From Candidatus Woesearchaeota archaeon (GTDB lineage Archaea > Nanobdellota > Nanobdellia > Woesearchaeales > JAGVYU01): a stretch of DNA of 60,841 bases. The notes under the pieces were generated by a model, which worked only from the letters and a program-made list of their open reading frames with translations, had not been told where the DNA came from and made no database searches. Shown in pieces: positions 45,370 to 60,280 of the stretch. Position 1 is the first letter of the stretch; every line of letters begins with the position of its first letter. A program made the translations under genes and the position numbers. The stretch spans positions 1 to 60,841 of the forward strand of contig JAZDHV010000003.1 in the NCBI GenBank assembly GCA_043805595.1, in the 5' to 3' direction.

Positions 45370-45372
45370 TTC

Positions 45373-45482
45373 TTATACTCAGAAATGGCAATACTCCAAC
45401 CTTAAGGTTGGAGATGTAGCCATTTCTGATCGACCTACTCCCATAGATACCCCTACCTTTAGGTGGGGGAGTAGGTCATTTT
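45373..45482. mobile_element. 110-bp double-hairpin element R3 (IS200/IS605-end-like MITE), copy 1
   Basis: CTCCAACC-TTAA-GGTTGGAG and CCCCTACC-TTTA-GGTGGGGG hairpins; 109/110 identical to 60171-60280. Confidence 0.7.
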
Positions 45483-46931: not shown

Positions 46932-46984
46932 GATTGAAGCATATATCCAGAAGTATATAAGTATTTTGCAACTCATTTATTCAT

Positions 46985-47137
46985 ATGTCAGAAATATGCC
47001 ACTGGCCTGCATGACCAGTGGACAATACTGTCAACAATCTATTTTTGGAAGGTAGCATATTTCTGAGCATGCTCAAATCCGGCAGGGTAAGCGAAGCGGA
47101 CATGCCTATCGACTGGTGGTCCCTGCCGGCTTTGACA
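46985..47137 (+). repeat. R4 repeat copy
   Basis: Similar to 47791-47948. Confidence 0.9.
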
Positions 47138-47148
47138 TTATCCAAAAT

Positions 47149-47736: not shown

Positions 47737-47790
47737 TATATTATTATCACAGATTTATAAACTTTCCTGTTAAATCTCTAGAAGTTTTAT

Positions 47791-47948
47791 ATGTCAGAAA
47801 TATGCCACTGGCCTGCATGACCAGTGGATAATAGTCCACAATCCATTTTTGGAAGGTGGCATATTTCTGAGCATGCTCAAATTCGGCAGGGTGAGGGAAG
47901 CGAACATGCTACCATTCTATTGACTGGTGGTCCCTGCCGACTTTGACA
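47791..47948 (+). repeat. R4 repeat copy
   Basis: Similar to 46985-47137 and to the reverse complement of 30848-31005. Confidence 0.9.
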
Positions 47949-48117
47949 GACTATTCATTTTTTGCCTTTTTCAATTTTTTCTAACAATGTCATATGCCCT
48001 TTGCAGGATGAGAGATCTCTAAACGGCTGTGTCCTAATCTATGAATGTTAATTTTGTATCTATATAGTGGTTACAAAACAAAAGATTTAAATAGAGTGTT
48101 ATAATTTTAATGCACAT

Positions 48118-49392: not shown

Positions 49393-49411
49393 CCACTGGA
49401 CATTCTGCTGT
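49393..49411 (+). promoter_or_regulatory. 19-bp motif CCACTGGACATTCTGCTGT, copy 1, just upstream of a TATA box
   Basis: Four identical copies, each followed by a TATA-like element. Confidence 0.7.
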
Positions 49412-49446
49412 AAACTTTATAAATGACCTCTTTTCCCAATTTTATT

Positions 49447-49860
49447 ATGGTTAAGCAGGCCAAACTCCTGAATTATGTTGAGCCAAGAATAAGCTATAAT
49501 TCAGGAGAAATATGTGGATTAGCTAAATGGAGGAAATTAGTTGTTGAAAGAGACAAAGGAAAGTGCCAGAACTGCTTCAATTCAGTCAAAGACTGGCTGA
49601 GAAAAAGAAATTTCTCTAATGAAGCCCATCATATAATCCCCAGGCATTTTGGAGGAAGAAACACTTTGAATAATGGAATCACTCTCTGCAAATTCTGCCA
49701 TCATTACTATGACTTGATGGCATTAAGGTTTGGTTATGACTATTTTGAGATTATCAAAAGCATGGATGCAGGAGAAAGGATCAATCAGGTAAGGCAATTG
49801 ATGAAAAAGCGGTTTTTGAGGTTTTTGTCTGGTTTGTTTACAAACCCAAAACAGTATTAA
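49447..49860 (+). CDS. HNH endonuclease
   Basis: RDKGKCQNC, AHHIIP, GGRNTLNNGITLCKFCH. Confidence 0.9.
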   Translation: MVKQAKLLNYVEPRISYNSGEICGLAKWRKLVVERDKGKCQNCFNSVKDWLRKRNFSNEAHHIIPRHFGGRNTLNNGITLCKFCHHYYDLMALRFGYDYFEIIKSMDAGERINQVRQLMKKRFLRFLSGLFTNPKQY

Positions 49861-49932
49861 TTTATAATAAACACATATTTTCTTATTCAAAAATAGAAGC
49901 ATTTAAAAACTAACTCTCCACTTCTATATATA

Positions 49933-50064
49933 ATGGCAGACTATAAGCTAGTTAAGTATTGCAGGGCTTGCAAGGACAGGTTTGTTGTTGACAAGAGTGA
50001 ATTAAAACAAAATTACTGCAGTGCGTGCCAGAATAAATTAGATGATGGACGTAAAAGTCCATAA
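49933..50064 (+). CDS. 43-aa zinc-finger microprotein, not in the ORF track
   Basis: MADYKLVKYCRACKDRF...NYCSACQ: two CxxC pairs; TTTAAA box upstream. Confidence 0.6.
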   Translation: MADYKLVKYCRACKDRFVVDKSELKQNYCSACQNKLDDGRKSP

Positions 50065-50134
50065 ATTAGAGAATATGAGTAAAAATATGAGCTGGGAAAT
50101 CTAGGTTTTCAGGCTTTTTTTTGGGAGGAATAAA

Positions 50135-50326
50135 ATGAAAGGAACAGTAAAATTCTTCAATGAGATGAAGGGATTTGGATTCATCGCTGGAGAAGATGGG
50201 AAAGAATACTTTGTACATCAGACAGGAATTAAGGATGGTGTAACCTTGAACGAGAGCGATAGTGTTACATTTGATGTAGAGCAGGGTGACAGAGGCCCAA
50301 AAGCAGTTAATGTGAATAAGAAGTAA
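50135..50326 (+). CDS. csp: Cold-shock domain protein
   Basis: MKGTVKFFNEMKGFGFI, FVHQT, GPKAVNV; GGAGG RBS. Confidence 0.95.
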   Translation: MKGTVKFFNEMKGFGFIAGEDGKEYFVHQTGIKDGVTLNESDSVTFDVEQGDRGPKAVNVNKK

Positions 50327-50443
50327 TTAAGTTTTTAAAATTATTAGTTTCATAATTTTTATGACTTTTTTATGCTTAAAAACAGCTTCTTTTTTTTATT
50401 TTTTTTAAATTTCTTAATCCTGCATTAGTTTTTATTCTTTCTC

Positions 50444-50674
50444 TTACATCCCTAAATATTTCATTAATTCAAATATAAGAAATCCAGGCCACAATAAAGC
50501 TTTGATAATTCCCCAAGCACCATCCCAAAATCCTGTTGCTGTAGATACATAATAAACTAAAGCTCCTACCATTCCTAAGAAATATATTCCTCCCCCTCCT
50601 TTGCACATATTGCCCATATCTTTGCATGCATTTTTCTTTTTCATTCCCATTTTTTCAATTTTCTTCTTTTCCAT
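50444..50674 (-). CDS. Small membrane protein
   Basis: GGIYFLGMVGALVYY...GIIKALLWP; GAGGTG RBS. Confidence 0.75.
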   Translation of the reverse strand: MEKKKIEKMGMKKKNACKDMGNMCKGGGGIYFLGMVGALVYYVSTATGFWDGAWGIIKALLWPGFLIFELMKYLGM

Positions 50675-50754
50675 ATTATTGCACCTCTAATTATCATTGT
50701 TGTCAAAGATTAAGATTAATTGGTTTCATATATAAAGTTTGCTGATATTACTGG

Positions 50755-50773
50755 CCACTGGACATTCTGCTGT
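50755..50773 (+). promoter_or_regulatory. 19-bp motif, copy 2
   Basis: Identical to 49393-49411; followed by GAGATATACAAA. Confidence 0.7.
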
Positions 50774-50889
50774 GAGATATACAAATGAGTTCTGGTTTCC
50801 TTTCTTTATTTTTCATAATCTTTAAGATTTTGAATAATCTTTTTTAAAATAGTAAACTTTATAATATATCAATTTATAATGAAATAATC

Positions 50890-51846
50890 ATGATTGATAT
50901 TTACTATTTTGATAAAAAGATAAAGAAAGGGAAATTAAGTGATTTAAGAAAGCTAAAAAACAAGAAGAAATGGCTGGATATCACAAGCCTCTCAAAAGAA
51001 GAGAAGAAATTAATTCAAGAAGAATTTGGACTGCATCCTTTGACTTCTGAAGACCTGTTTGACTCAGGGATCAGGATTAAAGTGGAAGAATTCCCTGAAT
51101 ATCTCTTCTCTGTATTTTATGGAGTCAGAAAGAATAAGACAATTGAACTGAATGAGATGGATTTTTTATTGGGCAATAATGTGCTGATAACAAATCATAA
51201 AGGCCAGATAGAATCCTTTCAGACATTAAAGAATAATGAGAAGAGGTTGTTGATTTTATTCAAAAAAGGGCTTGATTTCCTATTTCACAGATTGCTTGAT
51301 CTAGAGATTGACAACTTCTTTCCAGTGCTGGAGAATATTGATGATGAGATTGAAGATTTGGAAGATGAAGTCACAAAAAAACCAAGGCCAGAGCTTATGT
51401 CTAAAATATTGAAATTAAAGAGAAGGGTCATATCAATAAAGAAGATCACTCTCCCTCAAAGGGAAAAGATATCTTTTTTAGCCAAAAATGAGTATAGGTT
51501 TATCTCAAAAAAGTCAATCCCTTATTTTAGGGATGTTTATGATCATGCAATAAGGGTGTCTGATACAGTTGATAATTATAGGGAGGCAATAAGCGGAATT
51601 TATAATGCATATATGTCTGCAATATCAAATAATATGAATGATGTGATGAAAACATTAAGCATTATGGCTACAATTGCATTGCCTTTGGGAATCATCTCAG
51701 GAATATTTGGGACGAATTTTGACAACCTGCCAGGCCAGCACATGCATTATGGTTTTTGGATTATGATTTTGTTGATGTTGGCATTTGTTGGAGGCATGAT
51801 GTTGTTCTTTAACAGTAAAGGCTGGATTTATTGGAAAAAAAGATAG
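50890..51846 (+). CDS. corA: CorA-family Mg2+/Co2+ transporter
   Basis: FGLHPLTSED, YFRDVYDH, MNDVMKTL, GIFGTNF (GxN motif), two C-terminal TMs. Confidence 0.93.
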   Translation: MIDIYYFDKKIKKGKLSDLRKLKNKKKWLDITSLSKEEKKLIQEEFGLHPLTSEDLFDSGIRIKVEEFPEYLFSVFYGVRKNKTIELNEMDFLLGNNVLITNHKGQIESFQTLKNNEKRLLILFKKGLDFLFHRLLDLEIDNFFPVLENIDDEIEDLEDEVTKKPRPELMSKILKLKRRVISIKKITLPQREKISFLAKNEYRFISKKSIPYFRDVYDHAIRVSDTVDNYREAISGIYNAYMSAISNNMNDVMKTLSIMATIALPLGIISGIFGTNFDNLPGQHMHYGFWIMILLMLAFVGGMMLFFNSKGWIYWKKR

Positions 51847-52288
51847 TCTGAGAATTTCTAATAAATCCAAAGAAATAATTAATTCTTGCATGTGATATGT
51901 GCTAGCATCTTGGTAATGCATTCAAAAACTGCGTCTGCAGAGTTCATGAGCCTGATGAAATGAGAATTTAATATTTAGGCAATGACTATTTTCTCAAAGG
52001 CTTTTCTTCCTTATGCTTGTCATGGATGTGATGCTCTAAAGATTTTACAGGCTTATGGCAATAAGGACAATGACCTTCTGTTGTTGGTTCAATATACTTT
52101 ACTGGATTGTGCAATCCTCTCTTAGATTTTACCATATGTCTAATCTAATGATGTTAATATTTAAATTTATCTAAACCAATGCTTAGTATAACATTCCCTG
52201 TCAGGATTGAATTTTAGCTTTAGTTCCCAAGGGCTTTGTTTTTCATTATTGAATAAGATTTATAAATAAATGAATTTTTGTGGACAAT

Positions 52289-52435
52289 ATGGAGAAAAGA
52301 CTTAAGAAGAGCAAGCTCATTACCCAAAAAGAGCATGATGAGTGGCATAGAAAGAATAAGGAATATAACAATAAGATTGATAAGGAGCGCGAGCTTTGCC
52401 ACAAAAAGATAGGATTGACAGTCAAGAAAGGTTAG
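52289..52435 (+). CDS. 48-aa basic His-containing microprotein, not in the ORF track
   Basis: MEKRLKKSKLITQKEHDEWHRKN...ELCHKKIGL; TTTATAAA box upstream. Confidence 0.5.
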   Translation: MEKRLKKSKLITQKEHDEWHRKNKEYNNKIDKERELCHKKIGLTVKKG

Positions 52436-52568
52436 AAAGCTCAAATAGCTGAATGCTATAAGACTCTGATTATGGACTAATTTCTTTATATTTTTAAGTT
52501 TTATTCAATGAAATCAGCAGAAGAAAAACACTATAAAACCAACTGTTTTATTCTTATTTGTGTTGAAA

Positions 52569-52587
52569 CCACTGGACATTCTGCTGT
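52569..52587 (+). promoter_or_regulatory. 19-bp motif, copy 3
   Basis: Identical; followed by GAGATATATAAA. Confidence 0.7.
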
Positions 52588-52739
52588 GAGATATATAAAT
52601 GAGTTATCTCTTAAATATTTAAGTAGTAGAAACAGGATTAATTAATCAGGAAAGACCCCTCAACAAGCTCTTTCTAGAATTGGTTGATCCTGCTACTATT
52701 TAAACTTTTGGAAACTGAATATCAGAACATTTCAATAAT

Positions 52740-53246
52740 GTGGAATCTAAAATGGACCAGATTAAGCTTCAATTGGGCAGAGCCATGCCAATAAATGGAA
52801 CGAGAAAAGAGATTAGAAGGATTTTCCTTGACTTATGCACTTCTCTGCATCAGAATGGAATAAAAAGAATACTTTTTATTGATACTATCAATTTTCTTGA
52901 TCCTCACAAGATGGATCTTGGTGATTTGAATGAGATCAACTTCTATGACAACATATTCTGTGTCAGGACAGGACTGCCATATGACCTTTATGCAAGGCTG
53001 AGTACAGCAGAATCTTTCATAAGATATCACAGGATTCAGGCTTTATTAGTATCATCAATATCATCTGTCTTTTCTGGGTTTGAAAAAGAGGAAACACATC
53101 AGATTGTAAAAAACATTTTAGAGAAAATCAATCATCTCACTGAAAGATGCAATCTCTACACAATCATCGGCAACACAACCTCTGAAGAAGAAGAGGTGAT
53201 GGATGCTTATGCTGTTGTGGATAGGATAATGTCTAATCAATCTTAA
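52740..53246 (+). CDS. Short, likely inactive RadA/RecA-fold protein
   Basis: ILFIDTINFLDP...NIFCVRTGLPYDL...ALLVSSISSVF pattern; no Walker A. Confidence 0.65.
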   Translation: MESKMDQIKLQLGRAMPINGTRKEIRRIFLDLCTSLHQNGIKRILFIDTINFLDPHKMDLGDLNEINFYDNIFCVRTGLPYDLYARLSTAESFIRYHRIQALLVSSISSVFSGFEKEETHQIVKNILEKINHLTERCNLYTIIGNTTSEEEEVMDAYAVVDRIMSNQS

Positions 53247-53323
53247 CCAAATTACAGAAAAATTTGATTTTAATAGTCAAAATGAAAAGATTTATATAAT
53301 TGTAGATATGCACAAATATACAA

Positions 53324-53587
53324 ATGAATAATTTAGATGAAAAATCAAGATTATACAAGGCTTTGGGAGAACCTATAAGATTAAGGATTATTGAGTACCT
53401 TATGAAAAAGGGACAATGCGCTTGTATTTGTGAATTGAGTAAATTTCTAAAAAGGGATCAATCCGTAATTTTTAGGCATATACAGATATTAAATCAGGCT
53501 GGCATTATCAATACAAATAAAGAAGCCAAATATTTGATGTGTTGTATCAAAGATAAAAAAAAGATTAAGAAATTGTTGGAGGATTAA
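53324..53587 (+). CDS. ArsR/SmtB family transcriptional regulator
   Basis: KALGEPIRLRII, CICEL, QSVIFRHIQILNQAGII. Confidence 0.92.
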   Translation: MNNLDEKSRLYKALGEPIRLRIIEYLMKKGQCACICELSKFLKRDQSVIFRHIQILNQAGIINTNKEAKYLMCCIKDKKKIKKLLED

Positions 53588-53588
53588 G

Positions 53589-53711
53589 ATGGCAGAAAAG
53601 AAAAAGGGATTTTTTAGTAGATTAATAGCTAAACTTGATACTAAACTTGAAAAGAAATCTAAAAATAAAAAGAGCTGTTGTTGTCAGGATTCTAAAGATA
53701 AGAAATGCTAG
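53589..53711 (+). CDS. 40-aa Cys-rich microprotein between ArsR and the permease
   Basis: MAEKKKGFFSRLIAKLD...SCCCQDSKDKKC; GGAGG RBS. Confidence 0.6.
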   Translation: MAEKKKGFFSRLIAKLDTKLEKKSKNKKSCCCQDSKDKKC

Positions 53712-54665
53712 AAGAAATTTTAAATTGGATATTGTACTCAATTATAGGACTAAACCCAACAATAAAATGGGTTGAAACACTTAATTTTTTTTTTATATGA
53801 TTCTATCAAGATCATATTGATTCTGTATGTGATGATATCTATTATTGGATTCCTAAGAACATATTTACCTCAAAATAAGATAAAAAGATGGATAAGCGGC
53901 AAAAAGTATGGTACAAGTAATCTTATTGCGTCTTTTTTTGGAGCAATAACACCTTTTTGTTCATGTTCTTCAATTCCAGTCTTTCTGGGTTTTTTAGAAG
54001 CAGGAATACCCCTTGGTGTTACATTCTCATTTTTAATCACTTCCCCTTTAGTAAATGAATATTTGGTAGTATTAATGTTTGGATTTTTTGGCTGGAAAAT
54101 AACTTTAGCTTATGTAATAAGTGGAATATTGATAGGTACAATATCTGGGCTGATTCTTGGAAAAATGAATCTAGAAAAATATTTAGTGAAAGACCTTATA
54201 TCTACTGATAATACTAAGAAAGAAATAAGATTTAAAGGGTTTAAAAAGAGATTGGATTTTGGGCTAAATGAATCATTATCTATAACACGAAAATTATGGT
54301 TATGGATATTGGTAGGTGTTGGGGTTGGAGCAGTTATTCATAATTACGTGCCATCAGAAGTGATTCAATCAATAATAAGCAAGGGAGGCATATTTGCAGT
54401 TCCAATTGCAGTAATTTTTGGAGTGCCCTTGTATGGGAGTTGTGCAGCAATTGTTCCTATTGCATTAGTATTATTTGAGAAAGGAGTGCCTATAGGTACT
54501 GCATTAGCTTTTATGATGGCTATATCTGGACTAAGTTTTCCAGAAGCAGTCATCTTAAGAAGGGCGATGAAGCTTAAATTAATCATAATATTCTTTTTAG
54601 TTGTTACAATGGCAATAATCCTGACTGGTTATATCTACAATTTTTTGCAAATTTTACTTATTTAA
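53705..54665 (+). pseudogene. ArsP/DUF318-type permease, frameshifted in a T10 run (53785-53794)
   Basis: GAITPFCSCSSIP, FLITSPLVN, SGLSFPE motifs; upstream frame MLEEILNW...ETLN joins FFLYD if the run is T9. Confidence 0.8.
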
Positions 54666-54682
54666 GTAAAATATTTCTTTAA

Positions 54683-54701
54683 CCACTGGACATTCTGCTG
54701 T
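54683..54701 (+). promoter_or_regulatory. 19-bp motif, copy 4
   Basis: Identical; followed by GAGATATTTAAA. Confidence 0.7.
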
Positions 54702-54757
54702 GAGATATTTAAATAGACTCAGATTCACTCATAATTGTCAAAACATATGGGGTGAAA

Positions 54758-55066
54758 ATGGGACACACAATAACATCAATGCGCTGGGTCATCTATGATG
54801 AGATCCAGAAGCTGAAAAAGCTCTCTGATTCTTTGAGAGAGCCAGAGCATAGCATTGCAAAATCTTTGTTATATCACATCTACAGCAATATTTCTGCAGT
54901 GACCCATGCTAATCCTTTTCCAAAGGATCTGCTGAACAACATGATCTACACAATCCTGATTGAGGAAAAAAAGAAAAAAGGCATTGATGCTGATGATCTT
55001 GCTCTTTTGCTGTTCTCGATTATTGTTCAGTATAAGGCTGGGAAGGTTGATCTGAAAAATTCTTAA
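54758..55066 (+). CDS. Small helical protein resembling the PolB2-operon-associated family (arCOG07300-like)
   Basis: MGHTITSMR...E...L...LREPE N-terminus resembles the MGRTVPSxR family; GGGGTG RBS. Confidence 0.6.
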   Translation: MGHTITSMRWVIYDEIQKLKKLSDSLREPEHSIAKSLLYHIYSNISAVTHANPFPKDLLNNMIYTILIEEKKKKGIDADDLALLLFSIIVQYKAGKVDLKNS

Positions 55067-55245: not shown

Positions 55246-55542
55246 ATGCCAGAATTGTATAAAATGTCAGAATTGTATAAAATCTTTCAGATTTTTAACA
55301 CCCTAAAATGTCAGGAATTTTCCACCAGTTTTTAACTGGTGGCTGAAAGCCATTCCCAATATTGGAATCAGAAAAATGCTCAAAATGTCAGAATTTTCCA
55401 TCCAGTCTATGGCTAGTGGCAAGCTTTGCCTGCTTTTAACTTCAAAAGCTGGAAAATTCTGAGCACTAAGAACCACCAGTCTTATTATAAGGTAGTTGCA
55501 GATTTAGTGAATCCCACCAGCCTATGACTGGTGGTTCTTTAG
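55246..55542. repeat. R1 mosaic repeat, copy 6
   Basis: Matches modules of 1-400 in a different order. Confidence 0.9.
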
Positions 55543-55554
55543 GGTAAGAATTTT

Positions 55555-59983: not shown

Positions 59984-60170
59984 CCAGATTAAGAATCTTA
60001 TTATAATTCCTAGTAATTTCTTTGAGTCTGCCCCTTTCCACTAAAACTAGGCATTTTCAAAAATTTTGTCTAATCGCTGATGTTAGCCGAACCGACCCCT
60101 ACGAAGTGGGGGGAGGGAAGTATGACGGAGGGAGTTCGCAACATCAAGAAAAAGAAGAAAGAATTATTTT

Positions 60171-60280
60171 TTATACTCAGAAATGGCAATACTCCAACCT
60201 TAAGGTTGGAGATGTAGCCATTTCTGGTCGACCTACTCCCATAGATACCCCTACCTTTAGGTGGGGGAGTAGGTCATTTT
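60171..60280. mobile_element. R3 110-bp element, copy 2
   Basis: Direct repeat of 45373-45482. Confidence 0.7.

Follow-up and report, generated by a model that had tools for sequence, protein, structure and literature searches.

Introduction

In the bacterial SOS response the LexA box stands upstream of recA, umuDC and uvr genes and of genes of mobile elements, and in archaea upstream activating sites such as those of Ptr2 and GvpE lie just upstream of the transcription factor B (TFB) recognition element (BRE) and the TATA box. Here we analyze a promoter-proximal element, the 19-mer CCACTGGACATTCTGCTGT, four exact copies of which lie in a stretch of 60,841 nucleotides (the window) from a Candidatus Woesearchaeota archaeon. 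In the Sulfolobales, the protein Orc1-2 binds the DNA damage-responsive element (DDRE, 5'-ANTTTC-3') in the promoters of damage genes and regulates its own gene, as described in the available part of PMC6061795. The Pyrococcus mini-origin recognition box (mini-ORB) reads TTCCAGTGGAACT, with TTCC and GAA reported as invariant in the accessible text of PMC1904270. A further report, likewise available in part (PMC11791011), gives the polymerase PolB2 two partners: iRadA, a RadA that is inactive and lacks the N-terminal domain, and PPB2 (arCOG07300), which is small and helical, has a conserved N-terminal MGRT arm, resembles the N-domain of sigma factors and is likened to 1h3l_B. The three genes usually form one operon, which is damage-induced in the Sulfolobales, and orc1/cdc6 genes are enriched around polB2 (PMC11791011, same portion).

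We suggest that the 19-mer is quite probably the genus-specific form of an order-wide promoter-proximal operator, through which one regulator serves a regulon of the DNA-damage type. What is observed directly is the motif with its rigid geometry, the gene content behind it and its retention at orthologous genes in different families, and this comparative evidence of spread and gene content supports the original prediction, made from the sequence of the window, that the element is the operator of a damage-type regulon. A literature search, supplements aside, found no description of the motif or the regulon; the operon tables of PMC11791011 may list Woesearchaeota PolB2 loci.

Results

Four identical promoter modules in the window

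The 19-mer occurs in the window at positions 49393, 50755, 52569 and 54683, always on the plus strand, exactly where the original prediction had placed four identical copies just before TATA-like elements. When up to three mismatches were allowed, the window contained no match besides these four. The chance expectation is 0.02 copies, and none of 100 dinucleotide shuffles of the sequence gave four. In every copy the 19-mer is followed by a spacer of 4 bases throughout (AAAC or GAGA) and then by an 8-base TATA element.

Promoter module 1: 49393..49423, plus strand; 19-mer at 49393-49411, 4-nt spacer, TATA element TTTATAAA at 49416-49423
Promoter module 2: 50755..50785, plus strand; 19-mer, weakened TATA element TATACAAA at 50778-50785
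Promoter module 3: 52569..52599, plus strand; 19-mer, TATA element TATATAAA at 52592-52599
Promoter module 4: 54683..54713, plus strand; 19-mer, TATA element TATTTAAA at 54706-54713

Around the 19-mer the copies form a repeat family about 37 nt long, with 81-100% identity among them, and alignment of the 150-nt flanks on both sides of the four copies revealed nothing similar outside these ~37 nt. Because the similarity stops there, the copies are best seen as short promoter modules and not as leftovers of a larger duplicated segment. A 1-kb query comprising copy 2 and corA, run against the genome of a species of the same genus (G001), matched only the promoter modules of about 40 nt, together with two short low-score hits. 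Rfam returned no family match at four motif loci.

Module 2 differs from the others in that no open reading frame (ORF) lies at the usual distance. The next ORF, at a distance of 133 nt downstream, is corA (50890-51846), which has a TATA element to itself; sequence and ORFs thus agree with the earlier remark that the 50755 copy has a weakened TATA and only corA behind it. Possibly this module is a relic, or the promoter of a short transcript.

The set of motif promoters in the genome

The window is contig C3 of a 1.64-Mb assembly of 66 contigs with 35.7% GC. A search of this assembly for the core pattern ACTGGACAT, filtered for a downstream TATA-like element, yielded 14 promoter-like sites on 11 contigs, all of which have the TATA-like element in the register seen in the window, about 12 nt after the core. 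A position weight matrix (PWM) built from these sites scores them at 27.0-44.9 bits, a further site on contig C54 at 19.5 bits and everything else at no more than 14.3 bits, a gap that exists partly by construction, the matrix having been made from the same 14 sites. The sites and the genes downstream of them are as follows.

C23 site: a 108-aa gene, then RadA (Rad51 family, E 4e-90)
C59 site: a 732-aa B-family polymerase (PolB2-like)
C61 site: a 165-aa iRadA-like paralogue of the 164-aa protein of the window
C52 site: an RNase_H_2-type exonuclease
C54 site: a Cas4/Dna2-like nuclease, then the RFC small subunit
C43, first site: a MarR-nucleotidyltransferase, an unknown gene and a PD-(D/E)XK nuclease
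C43, second site: a 99-aa unknown protein
C19 site: a LAGLIDADG endonuclease
C16 site: a HEAT-methylase and a CfrBI-type restriction enzyme
C14 site (C14:25314), the strongest motif promoter: small ORFs, then Sua5/YrdC
C57 site: no gene on the motif strand
Window copies 1 to 4: an HNH endonuclease; nothing obvious (corA at 133 nt); a 164-aa iRadA-like protein; a 102-aa PPB2-like protein

A gene for a DNA transaction, as labelled by the analyst's own assignment, comes first downstream at 10/15 sites, as against 1/45 of the other ORFs of the window (Fisher p 4e-7). The original prediction had considered that the motif might be confined to its locus or randomly associated with gene functions; what was found is 14-15 sites in the genome, presence throughout the order and the biased gene content just given. 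Its expectation that the motif would precede repair genes held for polB2 and radA and did not extend to uvr genes, none of which lies downstream of any site examined, in a survey that included no search aimed at uvr genes. The 108-aa gene before radA is a candidate gene for a single-stranded DNA-binding protein, a label that is putative.

Three of these sites have surroundings of their own. On C19 (L003 3083-3249), the LAGLIDADG promoter has its motif 7 nt after the end of a tRNA-like gene, which has a 5' acceptor and D arm and a 3' T arm and acceptor and is interrupted by some 100 nt of inserted sequence; ARAGORN called no tRNA upstream of this LAGLIDADG gene, though the sequence resembles an interrupted tRNA. 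The C57 promoter (L007 ~2027; L228 in G001) is kept in both species of the genus and is followed by a conserved hairpin-like sequence, GGGATCACTGGTCCC; the genes there run the opposite way, and the promoter may give a non-coding or antisense transcript. Between the C14:25314 motif and sua5/yrdC (~C14:24654) lie three conserved small ORFs, a trio found also in L026, L015, L040, L044, L104, L106 and L107. ORF-a, of about 40 aa, has the pattern M-E/D-L-S/T-N ... LF-x-Q-I-x-x-L-T; ORF-b is acidic, with a C-terminal EEGFMxGY; and ORF-c contains FMEWDxYKxKIDFL. In L015, ORF-a and ORF-b stand before the small gene that usually precedes radA. These small ORFs are candidates for components or regulators of the regulon.

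Conservation across the order

The extended motif, with two mismatches allowed, was found in 22/41 relatives, compared with 4 matches for a reversed control. The pattern CACTGGACAT-N6-GT occurs in 142/301 genomes of the order, a tally that includes the unpublished genome G273, and gives 412 matches as against 9 for the reversed control (own table count). In other orders of the same class it was found in 5/107 genomes, with a single match in each. Three genomes of one genus in another order (G373, G400 and G405) share CACTGGACATATAAA(A/G)GT, a core that is followed directly by a TATA-like run; it may be either a compact form of the element or a conserved site that has nothing to do with it.

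In families that lack the strict pattern, 5/5 genomes have a variant of it in the promoter of the operon of the small gene and radA (CATTGGACAT, CACAGGACAA, CACTGGACAG and others), and the register is kept in 4/5 of these variant promoters. The element is therefore more widespread than the strict count indicates, its sequence drifting while the gene stays the same. Closer to home, the same-genus genome G001 keeps the element at the HNH, iRadA-like, PPB2-like, radA-operon, exonuclease, C61 and C57 sites, with flanks that are 80-92% identical; at module 1 the 19-mer is conserved at 19/19 positions where the surrounding DNA is about 80% identical.

Over all species genomes, the pattern followed by a TATA element was found in at least 119 stretches. 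From the public record, 80 loci with 81 sites were fetched by the pattern, so that evidence can be drawn only from their downstream genes and from positions outside the pattern. Of these loci, 79/80 have archaeal titles, Woesearchaeota or Nanoarchaeota for the most part, and one is labelled Armatimonadota. An ORF of at least 50 aa starts within 330 nt at 67/81 public sites. Pfam searches with these 67 first ORFs identified LAGLIDADG proteins in 20 cases, Cas4/PD-(D/E)XK nucleases in 3, MCM, RNase_H_2 exonuclease and Bro-N in 2 each, and Sua5, an integrase, TnpB, an HD dGTPase-like protein and DUF5131 in single cases. According to tblastn searches with the proteins of this genome, the small gene and radA are present in 10/80 public loci and sua5 in 7/80.

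Two of these genes are peculiar in themselves. The radA match of L161 (genome G007) contains two in-frame TGA codons, which may be errors of sequencing or assembly or signs of recoding or of a broken gene, and the MCM ORF behind the motif promoter of L031 has a weak match to an intein-splicing domain after the P-loop region (E 2.7e-4, below the cut-off).

Anatomy of the element

The core of the element is CACTGGACAT, and the TATA box comes exactly 12 nt after it. A GC-rich block with the consensus CGCGTGAG (here CTGTGAGA) occupies the place of the usual A-rich BRE. In half of this genome's sites a second partial core lies immediately upstream (GCACTGGACACTGGACAT), as is also the case in 24/81 public sites, where the period is 7 in 11 sites and 9 in 3, with other spacings in the remaining 10. 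At the unselected positions before the fixed GT, the 81 public sites have C in 52, G in 46 and C in 52, followed by G, A and G/A.

This composition is not that of ordinary promoters. Motif promoters have G at -4 in 54/81 sites, with CGC further upstream, whereas the generic leaderless promoters of this genome (n=155) have A at -4 in 70% and at -3 in 83%; the same positions are also A-rich, by eye, in most of the promoters of 30 genes for the Orc1/Cdc6 paralogue considered below. In motif promoters, then, the usual BRE is replaced by a G-rich block. If the TATA box is taken to lie at about -30 to -23, the element spans roughly -52 to -31. The first ORF of 17/67 public promoters has its start 51-53 nt from where the core begins, which is 22-24 nt after the TATA box and hence where the start of a leaderless mRNA is expected, indirectly marking these as working promoters.

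Window genes and the PolB2 mutasome

Three of the four window modules are followed by genes whose earlier assignments as HNH, RadA-like and arCOG07300-like agree with Pfam, fold and homologues.

HNH endonuclease gene: 49447..49860, plus strand; 137 aa, Pfam HNH E 1.5e-8
iRadA-like gene: 52752..53246, plus strand; 164 aa, RecA/RadA-fold core, with a 5' leader of about 130 nt
PPB2/arCOG07300-like gene: 54758..55066, plus strand; 102 aa, small helical protein with N-terminal MGHTI

The HNH gene product also matches the HNH region of the NCBIfam IscB model (E 1.7e-11, below the cut-off). Its transcript is probably leaderless, because an in-frame ATG (49447) stands 24 nt after the TATA box.

A canonical Walker A motif has the form GxxxxGK[ST]; the 164-aa protein has no such motif in its sequence, and its N-terminal domain is absent. 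It is a paralogue of the C61 165-aa protein (E 9e-13), which itself matches RadB/RadA models weakly. Its AlphaFold2 (AF2) model (mean predicted local distance difference test score, pLDDT, 79) matched KaiC, RAD51 paralogues and RadA 2zub_A (TMq 0.67, E 6e-6) in Foldseek. BLASTP against the RadA of this genome gave no significant match, so that the link to RadA rests on the paralogue and the fold. A PDB sequence search found no match for the 164-aa protein, and a protein atlas gave weak leads only, with a Rad51-domain cluster at 0.92.

A profile search with the 102-aa protein gave 15 relatives, and MGHT or MGRT stands at or near the N-terminus in all ten that were read (82-180 aa). Its AF2 model (pLDDT 82) has an N-terminal arm and helices; the top structural match is 1h3l_B, the N-terminal fragment of SigR (Z 5.5), a weak match tied with unrelated rows. 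The protein atlas held no usable match for it, and its only matches in the PDB sequence search were a designed repeat protein and a weak PolI row. Word-based homologue searches found only four relatives of the 102-aa protein and two of the 164-aa protein. The 109-aa ORF after the C61 iRadA paralogue is not a homologue of PPB2 and was rejected.

The canonical form of motif C in B-family polymerases (PolBs) is YGDTDS. Members of the PolB2 group have an inactivated exonuclease and, in many cases, a degenerate catalytic motif. In the C59 polymerase it reads HGIIDS, and this protein is the divergent one of the two PolBs of the genome (PF00136 69.6 versus 231.5 bits), with its best NCBIfam models below the cut-off. 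The earlier idea of a PolB2 operon is borne out by L034, a public Woesearchaeota locus in which a single motif promoter stands before genes for an iRadA-like protein, a PPB2-like protein (MGHTV...) and, as far as its N-terminus, a PolB with 34% identity to the C59 protein, in that order. A complex test of the 164-aa iRadA-like protein with the C59 PolB2-like protein gave a score of 0.73, the best of three controls scoring 0.00; the mark of this test is reached by 51/78 solved complexes and 2/108 mismatched pairs. The model runs agree in at least 92% of contacts, the partner has a pLDDT of at least 80 and the predicted contact involves residues 323-340 of the PolB2-like protein. This modelling supports, but does not show, binding of the window's iRadA-like protein to the PolB2-like protein.

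All three mutasome components are thus present here: an iRadA-like protein lacking the N-terminal domain and Walker A, a PPB2-like protein with the MG[RH]T arm and a PolB2-like protein with a degenerate motif C, and L034 has them in the order that is canonical in the part of the PolB2 report available to us. The arrangement in this genome differs, in that the genes are dispersed, two in the window, parted by an ArsR/permease pair, and one on C59, each with an operator copy, and that a second iRadA paralogue is present. The operon has come apart in this genome, and each piece has its own copy of the operator.

A candidate regulator

The genome encodes two Orc1/Cdc6 proteins, a canonical one (431 bits) and a divergent paralogue (183 bits, 359 aa), whose gene on contig C14 precedes the strongest motif promoter by 590 bp. 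The paralogue has orthologues in 58/61 genomes. A bona fide motif promoter was found within 1.5 kb downstream and on the same strand in 9/30 paralogue loci, with one further weak case, compared with 0/30 bona fide cases and one weak match when the same script was applied to canonical Orc1 loci (Fisher p 0.001). In 2/30 loci a motif promoter stands 53 nt before the start of the paralogue gene itself. These associations make the divergent paralogue a tentative candidate for the regulator, with a chance that we put somewhat under one half. The binding of Orc1-2 to promoters of damage genes in the Sulfolobales (PMC6061795) and the abundance of orc1/cdc6 genes around polB2 (PMC11791011) also count in its favour.

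Several results weigh against this assignment. Conserved synteny with the sua5 locus occurs in 7/30 paralogue loci; it explains part of the association and could account for all of it. The Orc1/Cdc6 copy number does not track the strict motif, nearly all of the 301 genomes having two copies in tallies that include nine unpublished genomes. The paralogue gave no PDB match to A. pernix ORC2 (1w5s), which canonical Orc1 matches, and looks, by its sequence, like a divergent relative of Orc1-1. Finally, the motif shares only CCA-N-TGGA with the mini-ORB and lacks the TTCC and GAA that the accessible text on Pyrococcus gives as invariant. Copy number compared with motif presence was rejected as a test; it does not discriminate, and the 'motif-less' families carry variants.

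At the start of contig C24, just upstream of the canonical orc1 (C24:101-200), lie tandem repeats of about 43 nt that resemble AGTTAAATATTATTCATGCTAGTTAAATGTTATATTCAAATGA; they do not resemble the promoter motif and may be repeats of an origin.

Other repeats in the window

A hairpin element of about 160 nt occurs in the window at 46980-47140 and 47786-47950 and, on the minus strand, at ~31000. It starts with TATGTCAGAAATATACCACTGG and has a stem of CCACTGG and CCAGTGG around a 9-nt loop, in which changes between copies look compensatory. Between the genes for the PPB2-like protein and a MazF-like toxin, at 55305-55554, is a cluster of palindromes of the form CCACCAGT-N5-ACTGGTGG (repeat families D13 and I2), a type also seen after the C16 motif. 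A direct repeat of 113 nt, 98% identical between 45370-45482 and 60168-60280, contains the perfect 20-nt palindrome CTCCAACCTTAAGGTTGGAG.

Discussion

Comparison with known systems

The element resembles the DDRE of the Sulfolobales in being a short promoter element shared by many damage-related genes, in a set that, as in the damage-induced set described in the available portion of PMC11791011, holds the PolB2 (dpo2) operon. Like the DDRE it lies upstream of BRE and TATA, the core standing 12 nt before the TATA box in all 14 sites of this genome, whereas in the 81 public sites that register was fixed by the search pattern. Orc1-2 is a non-initiator paralogue under its own control, and here a candidate paralogue has the motif in 2/30 of its promoters. 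The differences are equally clear. ANTTTC is not in the conserved block, which consists of the core CACTGGACAT, often in tandem, and a GC-rich block next to the BRE; the lineage is a DPANN order of Woesearchaeota type; and the targets are the radA operon, nucleases and homing endonucleases, among which neither pili nor Ced genes were seen. For the promoters described here, binding and induction are predictions.

With the bacterial SOS system the element shares the principle of one operator common to a recombinase, an error-prone polymerase complex and genes of selfish elements. The promoter, however, is an archaeal one with TATA and BRE, and its operator, upstream of TATA, repeats directly and is not a palindrome, as opposed to the LexA box, which is one and overlaps a bacterial promoter. 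In our reading the element would work like DDRE/Orc1-2, and in its logic like SOS. It belongs to neither: motif and lineage are different, as are some of the targets, and its regulator is a candidate.

Comparison with ORB and mini-ORB sequences shows a CCA-N-TGGA core in common, and the tandem copies suggest multimeric binding of the kind described, in the part of the literature available, for Orc1/Cdc6 on mini-ORB arrays. The motif stands as single promoter elements and not in origin clusters, and the repeats beside the canonical orc1 look different. The sites of Ptr2 and GvpE are similar in their position directly upstream of BRE and TATA and in often occurring as two adjacent sites, and a weak BRE would make such a promoter dependent on an activator. 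No regulator of Lrp or GvpE type is implicated here, however, and the block covers the BRE, which would suit a repressor equally well. Hairpin elements of the IS200/IS605 type (PATE-like) differ in that the motif copies share about 37 nt and lie outside the 54 element copies.

Alternative explanations

The same operator might carry a replication or cell-cycle (S-phase-like) signal instead of a damage signal. MCM is the first gene in 2/67 public loci, the RFC small subunit follows the Cas4-like gene on C54, an HD dGTPase-like protein is the target in one locus and a regulator of the Orc1/Cdc6 family would fit. The recurrent core of the set, however, consists of recombination, translesion and nuclease genes (the small gene and radA in 10/80 loci, the PolB2 genes, the exonuclease and the Cas4-like gene), the canonical replicative PolB (C35) is not among the sites and none of 30 canonical orc1 loci has a bona fide motif promoter. 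The accessible text on the Sulfolobales, moreover, has the PolB2 operon induced by damage (PMC11791011). We give this alternative a small but real chance. A promoter cassette that spread with selfish nuclease genes or by gene conversion, so that identity merely reflects common descent, would account for LAGLIDADG genes being the commonest downstream (20/67), for the bases that copies within a genome share beyond the order-wide core and for four copies within 5.3 kb, one of them without a downstream gene. It is nevertheless improbable, since the element stands at orthologous core genes in many families (radA operon, exonuclease, Cas4-like gene, sua5 and PolB2 operon), the core and register are kept while flanking bases drift, the similarity ends at ~37 nt without element ends and the 19-mer is identical at orthologous sites of G001 while the flanks diverge.

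TFB3 is a paralogue of TFB in the Sulfolobales, and the archaeal BRE usually does not reach as far as 12-22 nt upstream of TATA. An extended core promoter read by a variant basal factor, such as a second TFB or TATA-binding protein (TBP), would be consistent with a conserved block that crosses the BRE position and is unlike the generic A-rich BRE. The core lies just in those 12-22 nt, however, past the usual reach, and the 92%-complete genome yielded one TFB gene and one TBP gene and no second of either, which makes this explanation very improbable. Its precedent is that TFB paralogues direct damage or cell-cycle programmes in the Sulfolobales, according to the portion of bioRxiv 10.64898/2026.09.06.749720 that was available.

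The original prediction had itself offered a duplicated promoter, or an insertion target related to a repeat called R4 (CCAGTGGACAAT), as the alternative. The resemblance to R4 is real and partial: CCACTGGACATT and CCAGTGGACAAT agree at 10/12 bases, a copy of the hairpin element lies directly against the C59 site, and the C16 site is followed by palindromes like those of the element. R4 proved to be an arm of the hairpin in a different mobile element, which has 54 copies and its own conserved ends of about 160 nt. None of the four window motifs lies inside a copy, and the element copies score only 11-13 bits on the motif PWM, with no good TATA in register. With R4 belonging to another repeat family and the modules ending at ~37 nt, that alternative found no support; we rejected the R4 hairpin element as the source of the 19-mer, and the chance that the 19-mer is part of this element or its insertion target is negligible.

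Some observations nonetheless speak against a damage-type operator, the reading that we prefer. The promoter of hef in this genome has no motif, and copy 2 and the C57 site lack an obvious downstream gene. The same N6 recurs in seven sites of this genome, beyond the order-wide core, an agreement that gene conversion or a spread of promoters could also have produced. The presence of MCM, and of RFC in second place, would fit a replication or cell-cycle regulon equally well. Among the public loci, whose choice by pattern belongs here as well, 34/80 carry the submitter label 'uncultured Methanosarcinales archaeon', which is unconfirmed.

Proposed mechanism

We infer from the conserved sequence that a protein binds the element. 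A single sequence-specific DNA-binding regulator, probably multimeric, would sit from about -52 up to the TATA box and co-control about 15 promoters per genome. Its predicted targets are the subunits of a PolB2-type translesion 'mutasome' (iRadA-like and PPB2-like in the window, PolB2-like elsewhere), together with the radA operon, the exonuclease, the Cas4-like nuclease genes and the restriction-modification pair. Selfish nuclease genes (HNH here; LAGLIDADG, TnpB and integrase in relatives) would be plugged into the same switch. The regulator would either recruit TFB and TBP to the weak BRE or block TFB; on the layout of the promoter we lean slightly toward activation, leaving repression by occlusion of TFB a substantial share. 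By analogy with the Sulfolobales, where damage induces the PolB2 operon, the signal would be replication stress or damage to the DNA.

A bolder version of this mechanism, which we consider rather unlikely as a whole, is that an Orc1/Cdc6 paralogue with an operator derived from the ORB runs an SOS-like damage network in DPANN archaea and that free-standing homing-endonuclease genes have captured its operator. If true, it would parallel Orc1-2 of the Sulfolobales, and the conversion of an Orc-type initiator into a damage regulator would be ancient and widespread in archaea; LAGLIDADG, HNH and TnpB genes would then be expressed exactly when the recombination machinery of the host is induced.

Significance

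How DPANN archaea regulate their genes is almost entirely unknown, and they are either uncultivated or difficult to grow. A rigid operator found throughout an order, which marks genes for recombination, translesion synthesis and nucleases, allows a regulon to be read from the sequence in hundreds of genomes, and the divergent Orc1/Cdc6 paralogue offers a concrete candidate regulator that is accessible in vitro without culture. The subunits of the PolB2 mutasome appear to stay co-regulated after the break-up of their operon, with one operator copy per gene. Selfish nuclease genes, for their part, appear to be wired into the repair switch of the host, a parallel to the use that prophages and mobile elements make of the SOS response in bacteria. 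If the link to Orc is true, damage control by Orc1/Cdc6 paralogues would reach from the Sulfolobales to a distant archaeal lineage. Together, these promoters point to an undescribed SOS-like gene circuit in tiny archaea of the Woesearchaeota type.

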